A DNA stretch of 64,000 bases from Patescibacteria group bacterium (GTDB lineage Bacteria > Patescibacteriota > Patescibacteriia > UBA1558 > GWA2-36-10), in the NCBI GenBank assembly GCA_041650755.1, contig JBAZKN010000002.1, forward strand, positions 5,030 through 69,029. Direction: 5' to 3'. Under the pieces are notes generated by a model that had not been told where the DNA came from, did no database searches, and saw only the letters and a program-made list of their open reading frames with translations. Within the stretch, counting starts at the first letter, position 1. Each line of letters begins with the position of its first letter. The position numbers and the translations under genes were made by a program. Shown here piece by piece: positions 2,321-59,388 of this stretch.

Positions 2321-2848
2321 CTAAAGCGTCTGATTGATCTTTTTGCCTATATTTTTTGGGGTAATAGCAAAAACAAAAAGAATCATTGCGACTGCCAGAA
2401 AAACTAATTCTTTTTCTGTGCCACAGACCTTTGCCCAGCCGCCCAACGGGTCGTCCGTGTTATAGATTATCGTACATTTAAAAACTTCTATTTTCAAGAA
2501 AAATTGTTGCAAGATTAGTGTTAAGATAAGACCAGTAATGGTTTTTATGCCAGTATTCTTAAGACCATGCAGATATTCGCTGAGAGACCGTGATACTTTT
2601 TTACTGGTATTAGATATATTTTTGCCTCGCTGGCCAATCAGATCAGCGATTAAGGTGATAAGGCTAGTCACGATCAAAATAATTCCTAAAATTAAAATAT
2701 ATGTTGCGTTGGATGCTTGAGCGCTATCGCTCATACCAAAAAAATTGGCTACCCACTGGTAATCAATAACATTAATTGCGCCAACAGAACTTAATAAAAA
2801 GAAAAGTGAAAGTAAGATCAAAATTATTTTTCTGGTGATAACACTCAT
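2321..2848 (-). CDS. Hypothetical multi-pass membrane protein
   Basis: 175-aa ORF with AT-rich host-like codon usage and 4-5 hydrophobic segments. Confidence 0.5.
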   Translation of the reverse strand: MSVITRKIILILLSLFFLLSSVGAINVIDYQWVANFFGMSDSAQASNATYILILGIILIVTSLITLIADLIGQRGKNISNTSKKVSRSLSEYLHGLKNTGIKTITGLILTLILQQFFLKIEVFKCTIIYNTDDPLGGWAKVCGTEKELVFLAVAMILFVFAITPKNIGKKINQTL

Positions 2849-2872
2849 GGTAATGCGTGTCTATTTTTATTT

Positions 2873-2955
2873 TGGTGCCCCCAGGAGGACTCGAGCCTCC
2901 AACCGTTTGCTTAAGAGTCCGCCAGCTGGCGATCTATCAACTGAGCTATGAGCGC
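2873..2955 (-). pseudogene. tRNA-Lys(CTT)-like gene disrupted by a palindromic insert; probable pseudo-tRNA
   Basis: Reverse complement GCGCTCATAGCTCAGTTGATAGATCGCCAGCTGGCGGACTCTTAAGCAAACGGTTGGAGGCTCGAGTCCTCCTGGGGGCACCA. Its acceptor, D, T arms and 3' anticodon half are near-identical to the intact tRNA-Lys at 3373-3449. The 5' anticodon stem is replaced by TCGCCAGCTGGCGGA (a 14-nt perfect palindrome), so the anticodon helix cannot form. Confidence 0.5.
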
Positions 2956-3116
2956 ATCAATAAATTGCTAATTGTTAATTGATAATAGTTAATTGTTTTT
3001 GGTACTCCCTGAAGAGCGGCAATTATTAAATTAGCAATTAACTATTTACAATTAAATAGTAGTGCGGCCGGTAGGAGTCGCCGCGCCCGCTGCCTAGTGG
3101 CAGCTTAGGCGGCCAG

Positions 3117-3150
3117 GGAACCCACAATCCCTTGGTCCGAAGCCAAGTGC
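3117..3150 (-). repeat. Partial duplicate of the tRNA-Arg(TCG) anticodon arm plus variable/T region (tRNA fragment)
   Basis: cttggtccgaagccaag (17/17) recurs 70 bp from the same sequence inside tRNA-Arg, followed by a GGGTTC T-arm remnant. Embedded in a GC-rich 120-bp non-coding stretch (3061-3168). Confidence 0.5.
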
Positions 3151-3168
3151 TCCCCGCCTGCCATAACC

Positions 3169-3243
3169 TGGTGCCCTCGTCAGGAGTCGAACCCGAAATT
3201 CTTGGTCCGAAGCCAAGCGTGATATCCATTTCACTACGAGGGC
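3169..3243 (-). tRNA. tRNA-Arg (anticodon TCG)
   Basis: Reverse complement GCCCTCGTAGTGAAATGGATATCACGCTTGGCTTCGGACCAAGAATTTCGGGTTCGACTCCTGACGAGGGCACCA. Cloverleaf with anticodon loop CTTCGGA. CCA is encoded. Confidence 0.85.
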
Positions 3244-3372
3244 CTAGGATAATGAATTTTGATGCCCCTCGACTTCGCTCAGGGCACTCGATTTATAATA
3301 CGCAATGGTCGTAGGTGCTAATAGCACTGAAGACCACGAGTGAGACTTTTGCGAAGCGAAAGGCGAATCGAG

Positions 3373-3449
3373 TGGTGCCCCCAGTAGGATTCGAACCTAC
3401 GACCGTTTGCTTAAGAGGCAACTGCTCTACCAACTGAGCTATAGGGGCA
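3373..3449 (-). tRNA. tRNA-Lys (anticodon CTT)
   Basis: Reverse complement TGCCCCTATAGCTCAGTTGGTAGAGCAGTTGCCTCTTAAGCAAACGGTCGTAGGTTCGAATCCTACTGGGGGCACCA. Anticodon loop CTCTTAA. Confidence 0.85.
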
Positions 3450-3526
3450 AATGCGATAGAAAAATATAGCTTATTATAAGCTATACGGCAAGTAGTTTAC
3501 TATAAAATTTATGAAAAATCAAGGCC

Positions 3527-17070: not shown

Positions 17071-17136
17071 AATTTACCCTGTTAAATAACTCCGCTTAGC
17101 GGAGTTGCCGCGCGGCGGCATTTAACAGGGTAAATT
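17071..17136 (+). repeat. Structured 66-bp element, copy 1
   Basis: 17-bp perfect outer inverted repeat aatttaccctGTTAAAT / ATTTAACagggtaaatt enclosing hairpins aactccgc-ttag-gcggagtt and gccgc-gcg-gcggc. Ends 21 nt before the DUF2207 ATG. Confidence 0.7.
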
Positions 17137-17157
17137 TGTAAGATTAATAAAGTATTT

Positions 17158-33213: not shown

Positions 33214-33250
33214 GCCCCGGTAGTTCAATGGATAGGAACATTAAGATATA
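33214..33250 (+). pseudogene. tRNA 5'-half fragment (acceptor and D arm only)
   Basis: GCCCCGGTAGTTCAATGGATAGGAACATTAAG parallels the 5' half of the adjacent tRNA-Arg(TCT), then diverges. No matching 3' half is found. Confidence 0.45.
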
Positions 33251-33325
33251 AGTGCCTTCCCCCGCAAAATGTATGAGCGAAGCGAATACTATTTTGCGCG
33301 GTCCCGCAACACGAAATTTTTTTAA

Positions 33326-33400
33326 GCCCCTATAGTTCAACGGATAGAACAGCGGCCTTCTAAGCCGTCGATGTAGGTTCGATTCCTACTGGGGGCACCA
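33326..33400 (+). tRNA. tRNA-Arg (anticodon TCT)
   Basis: GCCCCTATAGTTCAACGGATAGAACAGCGGCCTTCTAAGCCGTCGATGTAGGTTCGATTCCTACTGGGGGCACCA. Confidence 0.85.
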
Positions 33401-33514
33401 CCGATAGTTTTTGCGGGACTCCGCCAGTTGGCGGACTCGCAGAGAGAGTAAACCCCTGTGGTAATAGTAGTTATGCACCTTTACATTTTTTACCACAGAT
33501 GTTAATATATCCCC

Positions 33515-33958
33515 ATGACATGGGAATATATAGCAGGTTTTTTTGATGGCGAAGGATCCATAGTTTACAATGGTAGTGGTTTTAGATTAACAATCGCCCA
33601 AACGAACCTTACGGTGTTAGATAGTATAAGTAGGTTTACAAAAATTGGTCAGGTTATAAAGGTCACCAAACGTCAGGTTCACTGGAAAGATAGTTGGGTA
33701 TATTATATAAGCAAACAGGAAGACATTTTATTTTTTGTGAGACATATCCAAAATTTTTCAATAGTTAAAAAACAAAAAATAAATATAGTATTGCCGAGGC
33801 TCATAAAAGCAGTTTCCAATAATAGAGATAGGATTTTAAAGAGACAACTATTGACTAAATCAGCTAAAGCTCTGAGAAAAAATGGTTTAAGTTATAGAGA
33901 AATAGGCAAGAGATTAAATATGGATTTTGGACAAGCGCGTCGTTTGATAAAAAGATAA
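33515..33958 (+). CDS. Free-standing LAGLIDADG homing endonuclease with C-terminal HTH
   Basis: MTWEYIAGFFDGEGSIVYNGSGFRL: single LAGLIDADG motif (IAGFFDGEGS). C-terminal GLSYREIGKRLNMDFGQARRLIKR. 147 aa. No flanking intron or intein context found. Confidence 0.7.
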   Translation: MTWEYIAGFFDGEGSIVYNGSGFRLTIAQTNLTVLDSISRFTKIGQVIKVTKRQVHWKDSWVYYISKQEDILFFVRHIQNFSIVKKQKINIVLPRLIKAVSNNRDRILKRQLLTKSAKALRKNGLSYREIGKRLNMDFGQARRLIKR

Positions 33959-33970
33959 GATTATTTACAT

Positions 33971-34048
33971 GGTGGCAGTAGCTCAGTTGGTTAGAGCATC
34001 GGGTTGTGGTCCCGGCGGTCGTGGGTTCGAGACCCATCTGCCACCCCA
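33971..34048 (+). tRNA. tRNA-His (anticodon GTG) with encoded G-1 and CCA
   Basis: G-GTGGCAGTAGCTCAGTTGGTTAGAGCATCGGGTTGTGGTCCCGGCGGTCGTGGGTTCGAGACCCATCTGCCAC-C-CCA. Confidence 0.85.
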
Positions 34049-34086
34049 TCGAAGATCCTGAGCGAACGTAGTGAGTCGAAGGATCA
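34043..34086 (+). repeat. 44-bp direct repeat, left copy (overlaps the last 6 nt of tRNA-His); attL-like
   Basis: accccatcgaagatcctgagcgaacgtagtgagtcgaaggatca, identical to 35761-35804. Each copy is followed by a similar hairpin plus T-run. Confidence 0.85.
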
Positions 34087-34350
34087 AAAAACACCCAATT
34101 TTCTTTGAGTGTTTTTTGTTCGTTATAATTTGACTAAATATATAATAATTGCTATAGTATCTTGTTGTTTTTCATATATTTCGTAGTCTGCTTTTTGTTT
34201 ATTTATATGAGTAAAAAGCAGGCTAAGAAAACGCTTAGTCTTTGTTCCGTTAAATAATTTTTTGTGTACGAAGGGGGGTGAACCAGACCGTTGTTCTGTC
34301 GGCAATCTCGTGTGCTAGGGTTCTGGATTCATTCAAGGAGGTATGGGAGG

Positions 34351-35613
34351 ATGTCGACCATGCTGCAATCCCAGGTCATCGAAAGGCTTCTGAAGTACGC
34401 GCGGGTCAACACCCGTTCGCTTCAGGCCATGCCGGGCGAGGAGCTCCCTCACCCAAGCAGTCCGGAGCAGGTGGTCTTGATCGACCTGTTGCTCTCCGAG
34501 CTGTCCGACATGGGGGTGCCGTCCAACTGGACCAGGAAGCTCGAAGACGCTTCGTTCCTGATCGAGATCCCCGCGACCGAGGGCCACGAGAACGCCCCGC
34601 ACGTCGTTCTGGCTGCGCACGTGGACACCTACTTCGGCTGTCCCGGCGGGGCCAACCCGATCATCCACGAGTACCAGGGCGGCGACATCGCGCTCCCGAA
34701 CGACAACGTGGTCATCCCGGCCTCGGACCTTGCCGGTCTCGAGGGCAAGGGGATCATCACCGCTGACGGCACCACGCTGCTCGGTGGCGACGACAAGTGC
34801 GGAGTCGCGGCCATCATGACCTTCATCGAGAGCATGCTGGCTCACAATCTGCCGCACGGTCCGCTGACCATCTGGATCTGTACCGACGAGGAGGTCGGCG
34901 AGGTCGGCGTGAAGTTCCTGCCTTCGGGCACGGCGGAGAAGTGGGACTTCTTCTGGACCGTGGACGGGGAGCGTCTCGAAGTCGTGGACATTGGCTGTTT
35001 CTACGGCTCCTCGGTCGACGTCGAGTTCATCGGCAACGATTCCCATCCGGGTGTCTCCGGCCACTCGCTCAAGCCCGCCCACTACGCCGCCTGTCGCTTC
35101 GTGGATCAGCTCGGCCTGGCGCCGACGCCCTGGCGGACCAGCGGCGAGGAGTCGTTCATCTACGTGCCCTCTCTGCCCGCCTGCACGGCCGGCAAGTCGA
35201 CGATCAAGGTCTTCCCGCGTACCTTCCGCCAGGAAGAGATCCCTGAGATGCGGGAGACGATCCGGCTCGTGGCCGAGGAGGCGGCTTCGCACTACGGCGT
35301 CCAGGCCGTGGTCAGTGAGGCCAAGATCCTCTACGTCTCCACCGAGGTCGCGATCGACCAGAACCGCCACCTGTTGCAGCCGGGTCTGGACGCGATCCGG
35401 AAGTTCTGGGTCGAGCCCAAGCTGCATCGCGTGCGCGCTGGCACCGACGGCGCCATGCTGAACATGACGTACCCGAAGATCCCGTCGCCGAACATGGGAG
35501 CCGGGGCCCGCAACTTGCACGGCGTTCGCGAGTTCGTCGTGCGGGAAGAGCTCCAGCTCGTCCCGGAGATCATCTCCGAGATGATCGGAATCTACGCGAC
35601 CATGTCGCGCTGA
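34351..35613 (+). CDS. M20-family peptidase (peptidase T/PepT-like tripeptidase), high-GC cassette H cargo
   Basis: HVDT, GGDDKCGVAAIM, TDEEVGE, GTDGA and NLHGVREF motifs of M20B. GC about 62%. SD AAGGAGG 9 nt before the ATG at 34351. Confidence 0.75.
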   Translation: MSTMLQSQVIERLLKYARVNTRSLQAMPGEELPHPSSPEQVVLIDLLLSELSDMGVPSNWTRKLEDASFLIEIPATEGHENAPHVVLAAHVDTYFGCPGGANPIIHEYQGGDIALPNDNVVIPASDLAGLEGKGIITADGTTLLGGDDKCGVAAIMTFIESMLAHNLPHGPLTIWICTDEEVGEVGVKFLPSGTAEKWDFFWTVDGERLEVVDIGCFYGSSVDVEFIGNDSHPGVSGHSLKPAHYAACRFVDQLGLAPTPWRTSGEESFIYVPSLPACTAGKSTIKVFPRTFRQEEIPEMRETIRLVAEEAASHYGVQAVVSEAKILYVSTEVAIDQNRHLLQPGLDAIRKFWVEPKLHRVRAGTDGAMLNMTYPKIPSPNMGAGARNLHGVREFVVREELQLVPEIISEMIGIYATMSR

Positions 35614-35760
35614 TCCGCCATCGTGAGAGGTTCGCAACCCAAACTGCCGTCTCAACAATCCTTGCAGGTGAGAGATGGCGTTTTCATTTATTTAAAATTG
35701 TAGATAGGGTATATGATAAGTATTTGAAATTAGTATAGTCCCGATACGTTTTACGACGCG

Positions 35761-35804
35761 ACCCCATCGAAGATCCTGAGCGAACGTAGTGAGTCGAAGG
35801 ATCA
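35761..35804 (+). repeat. 44-bp direct repeat, right copy; attR-like
   Basis: Perfect match to 34043-34086. Followed by tcaccc..gggtgg ttttttg terminator-like hairpin. Confidence 0.85.
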
Positions 35805-35868
35805 CAAAATCACCCTGAGCGTAGTCGAATGGGTGGTTTTTTGATATAATGGAGAAAATAAATTCACC

Positions 35869-37836: not shown

Positions 37837-38949
37837 TTATTTATTGTGTCCTTTACCATTGCCAGATGATTGTTTTGGCATAGCTTGTTTTAAGTTGCCA
37901 TTGAACTTAGCCATTTTTTGTTGTAGTCTATTTTTTAGAATATGGATTGGGTTGCGATCATTTTCACGATTTTTTTCACACCAATCATCGCACTTGCATT
38001 CACATTGGCATCTTTGATTGTTGTTTCTACCCAACGTGGTTACTGAAATAATACTAGAGTTTGGGGAGACATTGCCAGCCGCATCATAGGCTTTGACAAA
38101 GTAAGAGTAGGTGGTAGATGCAGTTAGACGGATGTCGTTATAATGGGGATTTTTAACTTGAGCAATTTGGATTCCATCTCTAAATACTTTATAGCCAACC
38201 ACAGCTAGATCATCGGTTGAAGTTGACCATTTTAGATTGACGTGCTGGAAAGAGACCACATGGGCGACTAAATTAGTTGGTGCATTAGGTATAGTCGTGT
38301 CAGTGGGGTTTGCCAAGGTTATAGCCGAGACAGTATTGGAGGCAGTTGATATGTTGCCAGCCGCATCATAGGTTTTTACAAAAAAGCTATAGGTAGTAGA
38401 AGCAGTTAGACCAGTGTTATTGAAAGTAGTATCGGTTGATGTGGCAATTTGTATATTATTTCTAAATATTTTATAGCCAGCTACTCCAATATTATCAGTA
38501 GCAGCGGTCCAGCTCAAATTTATTTGGGAAGAAGACACTGTGTTGGCGACTAGGTTAGTTGGCGCACTGGGCACAGTCAAATCAACGGGCATAGCCAGAG
38601 TCGTAGTTGATACTGGATTAGAAAAATCCGATTTATTACCAGCCACATCATAGGCCTTAATAGCATAGGTATAAGTAGTAGAGGCTGTCAGTCCCAAGTC
38701 GTTGAATGTGGTGGTAGCTACATTGGCGACTCCAAGACCATTTCTAAATATACTATAACCAGCTACTCCAATATTATCAGTAGCAGCGGTCCAGTTCAAA
38801 TTTATTTGGGAGTTTGAAACTGCAGTGGCCGCTAAATTAGTTGGTATAGATGGAGGAGTGGTGTCATCCACAGCTAGAGCGGACTTGATAAGTGTCAAAG
38901 AGGAGTAGGCAGCTACGAGTACGCCCAAGATTAAAAGTATTTTTTTCAT
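37837..38949 (-). CDS. Secreted protein with four fibronectin type III-like repeats and a C-terminal Cys/charged tail
   Basis: Four repeats of about 90 aa (PTNLxAxxVSxxQINLxWTAATDNIGVAGYxIFRNG). Signal peptide. Tail QRCQCECKCDDWCEKNREND. Confidence 0.7.
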   Translation of the reverse strand: MKKILLILGVLVAAYSSLTLIKSALAVDDTTPPSIPTNLAATAVSNSQINLNWTAATDNIGVAGYSIFRNGLGVANVATTTFNDLGLTASTTYTYAIKAYDVAGNKSDFSNPVSTTTLAMPVDLTVPSAPTNLVANTVSSSQINLSWTAATDNIGVAGYKIFRNNIQIATSTDTTFNNTGLTASTTYSFFVKTYDAAGNISTASNTVSAITLANPTDTTIPNAPTNLVAHVVSFQHVNLKWSTSTDDLAVVGYKVFRDGIQIAQVKNPHYNDIRLTASTTYSYFVKAYDAAGNVSPNSSIISVTTLGRNNNQRCQCECKCDDWCEKNRENDRNPIHILKNRLQQKMAKFNGNLKQAMPKQSSGNGKGHNK

Positions 38950-59226: not shown

Positions 59227-59292
59227 AATTTACCTTGTTAAATAGTTCCGCAAGGCGGAACTGCCGCTTTGTGGCATTTAACAGAGTAAATT
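59227..59292 (+). repeat. Structured 66-bp element, copy 2
   Basis: aatttaccttGTTAAAT ag ttccgc-aag-gcggaa ct gccgc-ttt-gtggc ATTTAACagagtaaatt. Same architecture as copy 1, with compensatory changes in the inner stems. Confidence 0.7.
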
Positions 59293-59388
59293 TTATCATA
59301 AAACGACACAAAAAGAAAAACTCGCCGCGTGAGTCCACCTGATGGTGGCGCAGCGAGCTTGAGGGAGAGGGGGGGGTGGGCGGGGTGC

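Follow-up and report, generated by a model that had tools for sequence, protein, structure and literature searches.

Dead tRNA genes and a shared palindrome at two tRNA loci of a Patescibacteria contig: probable remnants of GIY-YIG nuclease cassettes

The 64-kb stretch analysed here (the window), part of a 236-kb Patescibacteria contig, carries four tRNA genes called by ARAGORN: Arg(TCG) at 3169-3243 and Lys(CTT) at 3373-3448 on the minus strand, Arg(TCT) at 33326-33400 and His(GTG) at 33972-34048 on the plus strand. An Rfam scan of the window at gathering score (29 for the tRNA model) returned these four normal tRNAs and nothing else. Around the first two genes (locus 1) and around tRNA-Arg(TCT) (locus 2) lie pieces of further tRNA genes, together with a 17-nt motif, CGCCAGYTGGCGGACTC, that consists of a 16-nt palindrome (TCCGCCARYTGGCGGA) followed by CTC. 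We compared both loci with those of relatives (labelled L001-L104), and propose that they probably keep the leftovers of small cassettes encoding a putative GIY-YIG nuclease directed at tRNA genes.

The 17-mer has exactly two copies in the window, at 2915-2931 (minus) and 33422-33438 (plus), which are identical at 16 of the 17 nt in tRNA-sense orientation, for a chance expectation of 0.01 matches (shuffled sequence). This recurrence had been noticed in a sequence-only reading of the stretch, which placed the copies 6-9 nt too low (2909-2925 and 33413-33429), put the second one 13 nt instead of 21 nt past the CCA end of tRNA-Arg(TCT) at 33400, and suggested a palindrome, TCGCCAGCTGGCGA, that is not present as such, the sequence reading TCGCCAGCTGGCGG. 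Copy 1 (2915-2932, minus) reads T-CGCCAGCTGGCGGA, i.e., the palindrome of the family described below (TCCGCCAGCTGGCGGA) minus one C of the left arm (2918-2932), plus CTC (2915-2917), and its DNA hairpin is weakened to 4 bp. Copy 2 forms a 16-bp hairpin (33408-33447, plus; fold z-score -2.96) centred on TCCGCCAGTTGGCGGA (33420-33435). The palindrome hairpin has a folding energy of -5.9 kcal/mol (z = -3.0). A scan of the window for GC-rich hairpins (arms of at least 7 bp) found no further members of the palindrome family.

Relatives of locus 1 were recovered through the adjoining genes for a cyclic nucleotide monophosphate (cNMP)-binding protein and RluD. The ancestral order, promoter, tRNA-Arg(TCG), tRNA-Lys(CTT) and RluD, is found in at least 11 relatives, with clean Arg-Lys spacers of 9-30 nt in L066, L067, L068, L074 and L082. 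In the window, the ancestral tRNA-Lys site, past tRNA-Arg and ahead of RluD, holds a Lys-like gene (2873-2955, minus) that we assign as the dead resident tRNA-Lys(CTT), based on its below-threshold tRNA score, its alignment to relatives and its position. It is made up of tRNA positions ~1-24, the palindrome, which stands for the 3' end of the D stem and the 5' strand of the anticodon stem, and positions 32-76 with CCA; the CTC of copy 1 are the first three bases of its anticodon loop. As the sequence-only reading had supposed, the palindrome blocks the anticodon helix: ARAGORN does not call the gene, which lacks the 5-bp anticodon stem and 7-nt loop of a canonical tRNA, and the Rfam model accords it 26.4 bits by taking the palindrome as a loop-less "anticodon stem" and the true anticodon loop as an insertion. 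Decay substitutions add to this, with one mismatch each in the acceptor stem (G.G) and the D stem, GA for GG in the D loop and C for T54, and the gene folds no better than shuffles (z = -0.27). An intron-bearing tRNA or another known RNA family was considered and discarded for this gene, the region 2800-3500 yielding the sub-threshold tRNA and nothing else credible. For the 175-aa membrane protein encoded beside it, no relatives were found in the metagenome collection.

An AT-rich spacer with AATTG/CAATT inverted repeats (2956-3060, minus) separates the Lys-like gene from a GC-rich stretch (3061-3168, minus) that corresponds to a second dead gene, the ancestral tRNA-Arg(TCG). By BLAST, 3118-3152 match positions 22-56 of the tRNA-Arg(TCG) of L001 (97% identity) and 3062-3080 match positions 56-74 (100%). 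Positions 1-21 are gone and replaced by a linker, GGTTAT, and a half palindrome, GGCAGGCGGG (3153-3162), matching CCTGCCYGCCGGCAGGCAGG, a second palindrome type found in the cassette leaders of L001 and L094. A GC hairpin of ~37 nt (3081-3117, -13.3 kcal/mol) is inserted in the T loop, between GGGTTC and GACTCC, and the CCA end is lacking; in L064 (4290-4350), a fragment of tRNA-Arg(TCG) carries a different, double GC hairpin at this very point of the T loop. The anticodon arm of tRNA-Arg(TCG), CTTGGCTTCGGACCAAG, which had been described as duplicated 70 nt away, is indeed repeated at that distance downstream (3217-3201 and 3147-3131), yet as part of this dead gene and not as an isolated arm. 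The stretch was also considered as signal recognition particle (SRP) RNA, 6S RNA or another structured RNA, with zero Rfam matches and a fold z of only -0.9. An AATTG-rich spacer after the tRNA-Arg of L091 shows a weak resemblance to the window spacer (57% column identity), which is at most suggestive of homology.

Directly abutting the dead copy lies the working tRNA-Arg(TCG) (3169-3243, minus; ARAGORN, Rfam 63.5 bits), which belongs to a different sequence type (GCCCTCGTAGTGAAATGGATATCAC...), and the working tRNA-Lys(CTT) (3373-3448, minus; ARAGORN, Rfam) comes directly after the conserved promoter region. The latter matches the promoter region ahead of tRNA-Arg in L002, whose sequence ends within tRNA-Arg. 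Relatives thus carry tRNA-Arg(TCG) where the window has its working tRNA-Lys, and the working pair is reversed with respect to the ancestral Arg-then-Lys order, which the dead Arg and dead Lys retain together with their position. From these alignments, both resident genes appear to be dead, with replacements of the same anticodon adjoining.

A similar replacement is seen at locus 2. In its undisturbed form (L008 and L007), this locus consists of a promoter, a single tRNA-Arg(TCT), a LAGLIDADG gene and tRNA-His, the intact tRNA-Arg(TCT) starting with GTCCCGATAG... in L008 (from the same assembly as L001) and with GCCCCGGTAG... in L007. In L003-L006, where the LAGLIDADG protein is 94% identical, tRNA-Arg(TCT) is split at the anticodon loop, in the order 5' half, hairpin, different intact tRNA-Arg(TCT), second hairpin and 3' half, with ATAAG repeated at both split junctions. 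The window shares the 5' half and the new tRNA. Its 5' half (33214-33250, plus) comprises the acceptor strand, the D arm and a degenerate 5' anticodon stem and loop, and 33214-33235 match positions 1-22 of a relative's tRNA-Arg(TCT) at 95% (BLAST), in line with the tRNA 5' half that had been recognized there from the letters of the window. Then come the left part of the insert (33251-33325, plus; alignment A1), including a hairpin with a GAGCGAAGCGA loop, and the working replacement tRNA-Arg(TCT) (33326-33400, plus; ARAGORN, Rfam), which shares an identical acceptor stem and T arm with the working tRNA-Lys(CTT) of locus 1. The second hairpin and 3' half (~118 nt) are replaced in the window by ~38-44 nt that include the palindrome hairpin (alignment A1). 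Copy 2 is thus missing in relatives with a 94% identical LAGLIDADG neighbour, an insertion polymorphism, and since L003-L006 keep the second hairpin and the 3' half where the window has the palindrome hairpin, copy 2 appears to have arrived after the window lineage split from them.

Known ways of interrupting a tRNA gene were examined and rejected for these loci. Group I introns (Intron_gpI) are absent from the whole window at gathering score, and from 2800-3500 at E-values up to 10, the permissive filter being applied to that region only; moreover, the insert in the split tRNA-Arg(TCT) holds a complete tRNA, unlike a catalytic intron core. Matching halves of a split tRNA with its partner elsewhere in the window were not found. 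A split tRNA of the Nanoarchaeum type does not fit either: the window has no 3' half of Arg(TCT), no CCGGGGCA partner in a tRNA-like context, and does have a complete tRNA with the same anticodon. The archaeal splicing endonuclease is not known from bacteria.

The origin of the palindrome is suggested by L081, which shares the gene neighbourhood of the window. There, GCCCTTATAGCTCAGTTGGTAGA, TCCGCCAACTGGCGGA and CTCTTAAGCAAA follow one another and precede an 88-aa GIY-YIG gene (protein P0126), whose stop codon falls within the next intact tRNA-Lys(CTT). Homologues of this protein, annotated only in Patescibacteria, were used to recover a family of cassette loci with a common plan: a dead partial tRNA in which 7-8 nt are replaced by the palindrome, a GIY-YIG gene of 85-99 aa, and an intact tRNA of the same kind (Lys-CTT, Lys-TTT or Asn-GTT). 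In all 12 family loci, the palindrome lies 27-48 nt ahead of the ATG, the region upstream of the gene resembles the downstream tRNA (z 2.6-19), and the intact tRNA starts between -9 and +20 nt from the gene end. The 16-mer itself is present in 17 of the 104 fetched loci. L091-L093 have the same site and leader as L081, L094 and L095 the same leader in another neighbourhood along with a second palindrome, CCTGCCCGCCGGCAGGCAGG, and GATCCGCCAACTGGCGGACTCTTAAGCAAA precedes the GIY-YIG genes in L081 and L091-L095. The palindrome lies within a tRNA-Lys(TTT) fragment in L096, and within a tRNA-Asn(GTT) fragment in L097-L104 (TTCCGGGGTA, palindrome, GGTAGAGCG). In L063 and L092, a full-length pseudo-tRNA-Lys with the palindrome but devoid of an open reading frame (ORF) follows the intact tRNA-Lys. 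The Lys-like gene of the window aligns column for column with that of L063, and also with the GIY-YIG gene leaders of L081, L091, L092, L094 and L096 (alignment A3). The GIY-YIG gene of L070 has 5' halves of one tRNA-Arg(TCG) type, together with GC hairpins, on both sides, and the other type comes next; this second type, which there replaces the first, is the one now working in the window, the two tRNAs being near-identical.

The cassette nuclease matches the Pfam family GIY-YIG (PF01541, E = 6e-15), with catalytic Tyr, Tyr, Gly, Arg, His and Glu invariant in 20 sequences, and weakly matches homing-endonuclease families and SLX1. While its identity falls to ~51%, the palindrome remains identical across three tRNA contexts. 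In relatives of locus 1 the site is empty (L066, L067, L068, L074, L082) or occupied (L001, L070, L081, L091-L093), and cassettes are found in other gene neighbourhoods as well (L094-L104); the cassette therefore appears to be mobile, as indicated by these empty and occupied sites. No GIY-YIG gene was found in the 64-kb window with a profile of 25 cassette-family members (best E = 1.9), and both palindrome copies of the window are therefore orphans, nuclease-less. As this gene is absent from the window yet present in relatives with the same palindrome, the window holds remnants of cassettes and not a cassette member. The palindrome with Lys-type flanks was also searched in viral contigs, with zero matches. 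Gene callers sometimes extend the GIY-YIG frame through the palindrome, which creates a spurious PPAGG peptide (N-terminus of P0134; C-terminus of P0140, L097 1758-1773); this annotation artefact could possibly serve as a marker of cassettes.

The comparison with relatives indicates that the 17-mer is not peculiar to this genome, and corresponds to the constant palindrome of Patescibacteria GIY-YIG cassettes at tRNA-Lys and tRNA-Asn. The Lys-like gene fails to fold into a genuine tRNA and its motif recurs in relatives, so that neither of the two outcomes named beforehand as refuting the sequence-only reading was obtained. A neutral decay of duplicated tRNAs with chance GC hairpins, the recurrence being then a coincidence or an ectopic gene conversion in this genome only, is hardly tenable. 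Indels do build up in dead DNA, and the other GC hairpins do not share one sequence, but the chance expectation of 0.01 per window and the identical palindrome in at least 15 loci of several unrelated assemblies, always with the same gene, already contradict this reading.

The closest known analogue of these cassettes, judging by architecture, seems to be SegB of T-even phages, a free-standing GIY-YIG homing endonuclease encoded in the phage tRNA cluster (PMC13096335; Brok-Volchanskaya 2008, cited there). This enzyme cleaves within tRNA genes, a T-loop-like motif (RAWTSGAAC) being among its targets, and drives the tandem amplification of tRNA and segB, which relies on a microhomology shared by the tRNA 5' end and the segB 3' end (PMC13096335). 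In both systems GIY-YIG genes lie among tRNA genes, and the 3' end of the nuclease gene overlaps, or has microhomology with, the start of the next tRNA; in the cassettes, the stop codon falls within that tRNA and duplicated tRNA pieces surround the nuclease gene. The cassettes differ in being found on bacterial chromosomes, in their conserved 16-nt palindrome within an upstream dead partial tRNA, in the like-for-like replacement of the resident tRNA, and in a putative nuclease limited to a catalytic domain of 85-99 aa and just weakly similar to the phage homing endonuclease families. SegB itself is roughly double in size, with a distinct region for DNA binding. In fungal mitochondria, Paquin, Laforest and Lang reportedly described in 1994 a GIY-YIG element of Allomyces atp6 that brings a replacement gene piece and leaves the displaced original as a relic. 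In such endonuclease genes as in the cassettes, the nuclease comes with a duplicated part of the target that restores the gene, the old part stays nearby as a pseudogene fragment, and the duplicate may serve as a homology arm; the cassettes, in contrast, target tRNAs, duplicate the 5' portion or carry the whole tRNA, and leave a relic with a specific palindrome. Within the same bacterial group, the Candidate Phyla Radiation (CPR), GIY-YIG genes also occur in structural RNA genes, namely in sparse non-intron insertions of rRNA genes that the authors judged outside a homing context (PMC11270868); an association with tRNAs, a partial target duplication or a palindrome are not reported there. Our literature search did not find a description of GIY-YIG cassettes at CPR tRNA genes, or of the palindrome.

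Based on these comparisons, we propose, with a probability of roughly three in four, that the resident tRNAs at both loci of the window were struck by nuclease cassettes directed at tRNA genes and exchanged like for like, the 17-mer being a cassette leftover. By analogy with SegB and from the cassette architecture, the nuclease would cut the tRNA gene, and repair off the cassette-bearing template would copy in the nuclease gene along with a fresh tRNA. As tRNA sequence would provide homology on both sides, the cassette could enter any genome with a similar tRNA. The old tRNA copy would persist as a fragment patched by the palindrome or by another GC hairpin, no longer able to be cut or to form a tRNA. 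In the lineage of the window, the nuclease gene would later have been lost, e.g., by recombination between the duplicated CTCTTAAGCAAACGG segments; a loss via duplicated tRNA segments would leave a full-length Lys-like gene with the palindrome, and the relics of the window would now be functionless. The sequence-only reading had offered repeated recombination or integration at tRNA genes, or a small palindromic mobile element: tRNA-aimed recombination does seem to have recurred, and the palindrome does seem to belong to a mobile element, while the fragments are best seen as ancestral tRNAs in place.

Within this proposal, the palindrome is most likely a putative cis-acting site of the nuclease, for binding, cleavage or immunity. 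That it is such a site and not random filler is suggested by its being identical in three tRNA contexts while the protein falls to ~51%. A bolder version, which we regard as unlikely though worth stating, would make it the cis site, perhaps as a cruciform or hairpin, of a minimal GIY-YIG nuclease reduced to its catalytic domain, the pair forming a new tiny mobile system that patches and kills resident tRNAs while delivering the replacement; the palindrome could then also move in trans, which would explain the orphans of the window. If true, this pair would be the GIY-YIG counterpart of the partnership between repetitive extragenic palindromic (REP) sequences and their transposase, and would drive the turnover of tRNA genes in the reduced Patescibacteria genomes.

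The palindrome could alternatively be the element itself, a non-autonomous miniature of 16 nt inserted into tRNA-like DNA in trans by the GIY-YIG nuclease, in the way that transposases move REP sequences or that mitochondrial GC hairpins spread, with the window copies as independent insertions, which we consider improbable. It resembles dispersed palindromic repeat families, i.e., REP sequences, miniature inverted-repeat transposable elements (MITEs) and mitochondrial GC hairpins, in forming a hairpin, in replacing sequence cleanly without target duplication (in the window and in the cassettes of relatives) and in being polymorphic, but two copies in 64 kb, none of them outside tRNA loci, fall short of the many copies of such families. 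Its different positions in different tRNAs (25-31 in Lys, 10-17 in Asn), with tRNA sequence on both sides, would suit an element, as would the copies flanking the nuclease gene in L097 and L092/L063, the orphan copies in L042 and the window, the recent arrival of copy 2 indicated by its absence beside 94%-identical LAGLIDADG genes, and a central 4 nt of AACT, AGTT or AGCT, reminiscent of flip/flop hairpin orientations. Yet all non-orphan copies lie less than 50 nt from a GIY-YIG gene, and a known mechanism for moving a 16-nt palindrome is lacking. Both window copies, besides, retain CTC, which belongs natively to the anticodon loop of tRNA-Lys; this suggests that copy 2 was copied from a Lys-type cassette and not inserted as a bare 16-mer. 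The mitochondrial hairpins summarized in PMC2800124 (Neurospora palindromes flanking tRNA genes, Allomyces double hairpins, yeast GC clusters) offer a parallel: they are likewise short GC-rich inserts in an AT-richer genome, often at or in tRNA and rRNA genes and suspected to be mobile, inserted cleanly and without target-site duplication in Allomyces, and double hairpins recur in L070 and L064. Here, by contrast, copies are few, tied to a GIY-YIG gene and confined to dead tRNAs, with a single 16-mer shared across distant lineages.

A quite different view would make the palindrome-bearing pseudo-tRNA a working tRNA-like RNA, a leader controlling the expression or processing of the nuclease mRNA in the tRNA operon, or a decoy, the Lys-like gene being then still functional. 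The conservation of pseudo-tRNA and palindrome while the nuclease diverges to ~51%, the constant placement of the pseudo-tRNA at 11-32 nt from the ATG, and an Rfam tRNA model that nearly accepts it, with the palindrome as anticodon arm, all agree with such a role, and the nuclease stop codon inside the next tRNA would couple RNase P processing to mRNA integrity. Such a leader is possible for complete cassettes and unlikely for the decayed copy of the window, which has no nuclease gene to regulate, carries mismatches in the acceptor and D stems, a shortened palindrome arm and a mutated T loop, and folds like shuffles; and the palindrome arms, identical and without compensatory changes, do not by themselves demonstrate RNA pairing. 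Overall, we hold this explanation to be quite unlikely.

Scars of integration and excision by integrases, left as duplicated attachment sites of tRNA islands next to unrelated GC hairpins, seem very unlikely at the motif loci. The cassettes share with integrase islands their tRNA targets and the fragment scars, one direct-repeat-flanked island follows tRNA-His in the window (34043-35809; see below), ATAAG is found at both junctions of the split tRNA-Arg(TCT) in relatives, the tandem tRNA 3' halves of L031 each start in the anticodon loop, and in L097 a large serine recombinase adjoins tRNA-Asn. But the tRNA direct repeat occurs in the window at tRNA-His only, around a peptidase gene, and what is left at locus 1 and in cassettes consists of 5' portions or complete genes instead of the displaced 3' parts expected of an integrase crossover. 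The inserts span ~0.3 kb and encode the nuclease alone, and a GIY-YIG gene accompanies the motif at all 12 family loci. The ORF lists revealed no integrase-like ORF near 2.8-3.5 kb or 33.1-33.5 kb, with six ORFs scanned against Pfam, short of a formal exclusion. The recombinase gene of L097 (1880-3300) lies on the opposite strand, directly after the tRNA-Asn that bears the GIY-YIG cassette; two kinds of mobile elements therefore use the same tRNA.

Several points weigh against the proposed replacement by nuclease cassettes. An intact downstream tRNA should retain any target lying wholly within the tRNA, so that self-immunity is not accounted for, and the palindrome takes the place of positions ~25-31 in Lys and of ~10-17 in Asn, which a single simple insertion model does not predict. 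Cleavage and homing by proteins of 85-99 aa are read from the architecture and from SegB, and these proteins consist of the catalytic domain only, without an obvious DNA-binding domain. The surroundings of copy 2 hold no recognizable Lys or Asn fragment, CTC aside. The other GC hairpins (in the T-loop insert, L070, L064, L018 and L003-L006) are unrelated in sequence and may reflect a different process. The order in which the new tRNAs were gained and the old ones died at locus 1 is deduced from relatives that are at most 90% identical, and the nuclease search took in 64 kb of the 236-kb contig.

If the proposal holds, its implications would reach beyond this contig. The genomes of Patescibacteria are tiny, and presumably the majority of their tRNA genes are essential and exist as one copy. 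A selfish cassette that brings its own tRNA copy would explain why fragments litter their tRNA clusters, why tRNA sequence types are swapped between lineages, and why gene finders miss or miscall tRNAs in this group. The cassettes offer a concrete candidate pair of nuclease and DNA site, an 88-aa enzyme and a 16-nt palindrome, and would extend the link between tRNA genes and GIY-YIG nucleases known from SegB from phages to bacterial chromosomes. For annotation, the 16-mer could be used to mark cassettes and dead tRNA copies.

The gene next to locus 2 encodes a single-domain LAGLIDADG protein of 147 aa with a C-terminal helix-turn-helix (33515-33958, plus), and ends 13 nt before tRNA-His(GTG) (33972-34048, plus). 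tRNA-His starts 10-50 nt past the LAGLIDADG gene in 34 of the 36 loci examined (L003-L043), spread over many Patescibacteria classes at 40-94% protein identity, and tRNA-Arg(TCT) usually lies upstream. The two thus look like an ancient fixed pair and not like a recent invader. We accordingly discarded the LAGLIDADG gene as a recent invader behind locus 2, its pairing with tRNA-His being near-universal and occurring with and without a disrupted tRNA-Arg(TCT). A 5' fragment of tRNA-His ahead of the LAGLIDADG gene is not supported in general: z exceeds 4 in just 3 of 38 loci and is -0.7 in the window, and the BLAST hints involved the tRNA-His of other genomes.

Downstream of tRNA-His, a 49-nt direct repeat, 98% identical between 34043-34091 and 35761-35809, contains the last tRNA-His bases and a hairpin with a GAGCGAAC loop. 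It brackets a lone GC-rich gene (~55%, for a genome background of ~42%) encoding a peptidase of the M20 family (34291-35613), and this segment resembles a single-gene island that entered at the tRNA-His 3' end, without an integrase. Hairpins with GAGCGAAG(Y)CGA or GAGCGAACG...TCGA loops (at ~3262-3290, 3330-3372, 33262-33300, 34050-34086 and 35768-35804) flank the tRNA genes and the island, and comparable hairpins come after tRNA genes in L001 and L003-L006. They could act as signals for processing or termination, or else form a repeat family; read backwards, they encode the "LRSG" peptides of spurious ORFs.

Dead tRNA pieces are common in Patescibacteria tRNA clusters (L018, L031, L036, L016, L021, L028 and L064), often with GC hairpins in loops or as tandem halves. 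L018 (2200-2300), for instance, has a dead tRNA-Arg(TCT) whose anticodon loop contains a 38-nt hairpin, L031 (2300-2420) two tandem tRNA 3' halves that each begin in the anticodon loop, and L036 (1990-2490) nested partial tRNA duplications. Group I introns (RF00028) were detected in the anticodon loop of tRNA-Phe(GAA) in two Patescibacteria loci, L034 (868-1097, 85 bits) and L022 (350-589, 77 bits). The same tRNA is split at L043 2160-2463, there with no Rfam match at gathering score, and ARAGORN misses all three split genes. The records of L001, L008, L009, L015 and L018 are titled "uncultured Gammaproteobacteria bacterium" despite a gene order and tRNA-cluster architecture of Patescibacteria, and are probably mislabelled.

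GC-rich patches (0.51-0.60 versus ~0.42) occur at 1383-2147, ~7-8 kb, 16-17 kb and 24-25 kb; one of them corresponds to an acyltransferase gene located between locus 1 and RluD and missing in the syntenic relative L001, and they may reflect a mosaic of acquired genes. Apart from tRNA-related repeats, a BLAST of the window against itself revealed three unrelated ones. Repeat pairs without relation to the palindrome include a 67-nt repeat with terminator-like hairpins (81%, 17071-17137 and 59227-59293) and a 72-nt repeat with copies 282 nt apart (94%, 38458-38529 and 38740-38811), the latter with a weaker companion pair at the same 282-nt offset (38072-38129 and 38354-38411).

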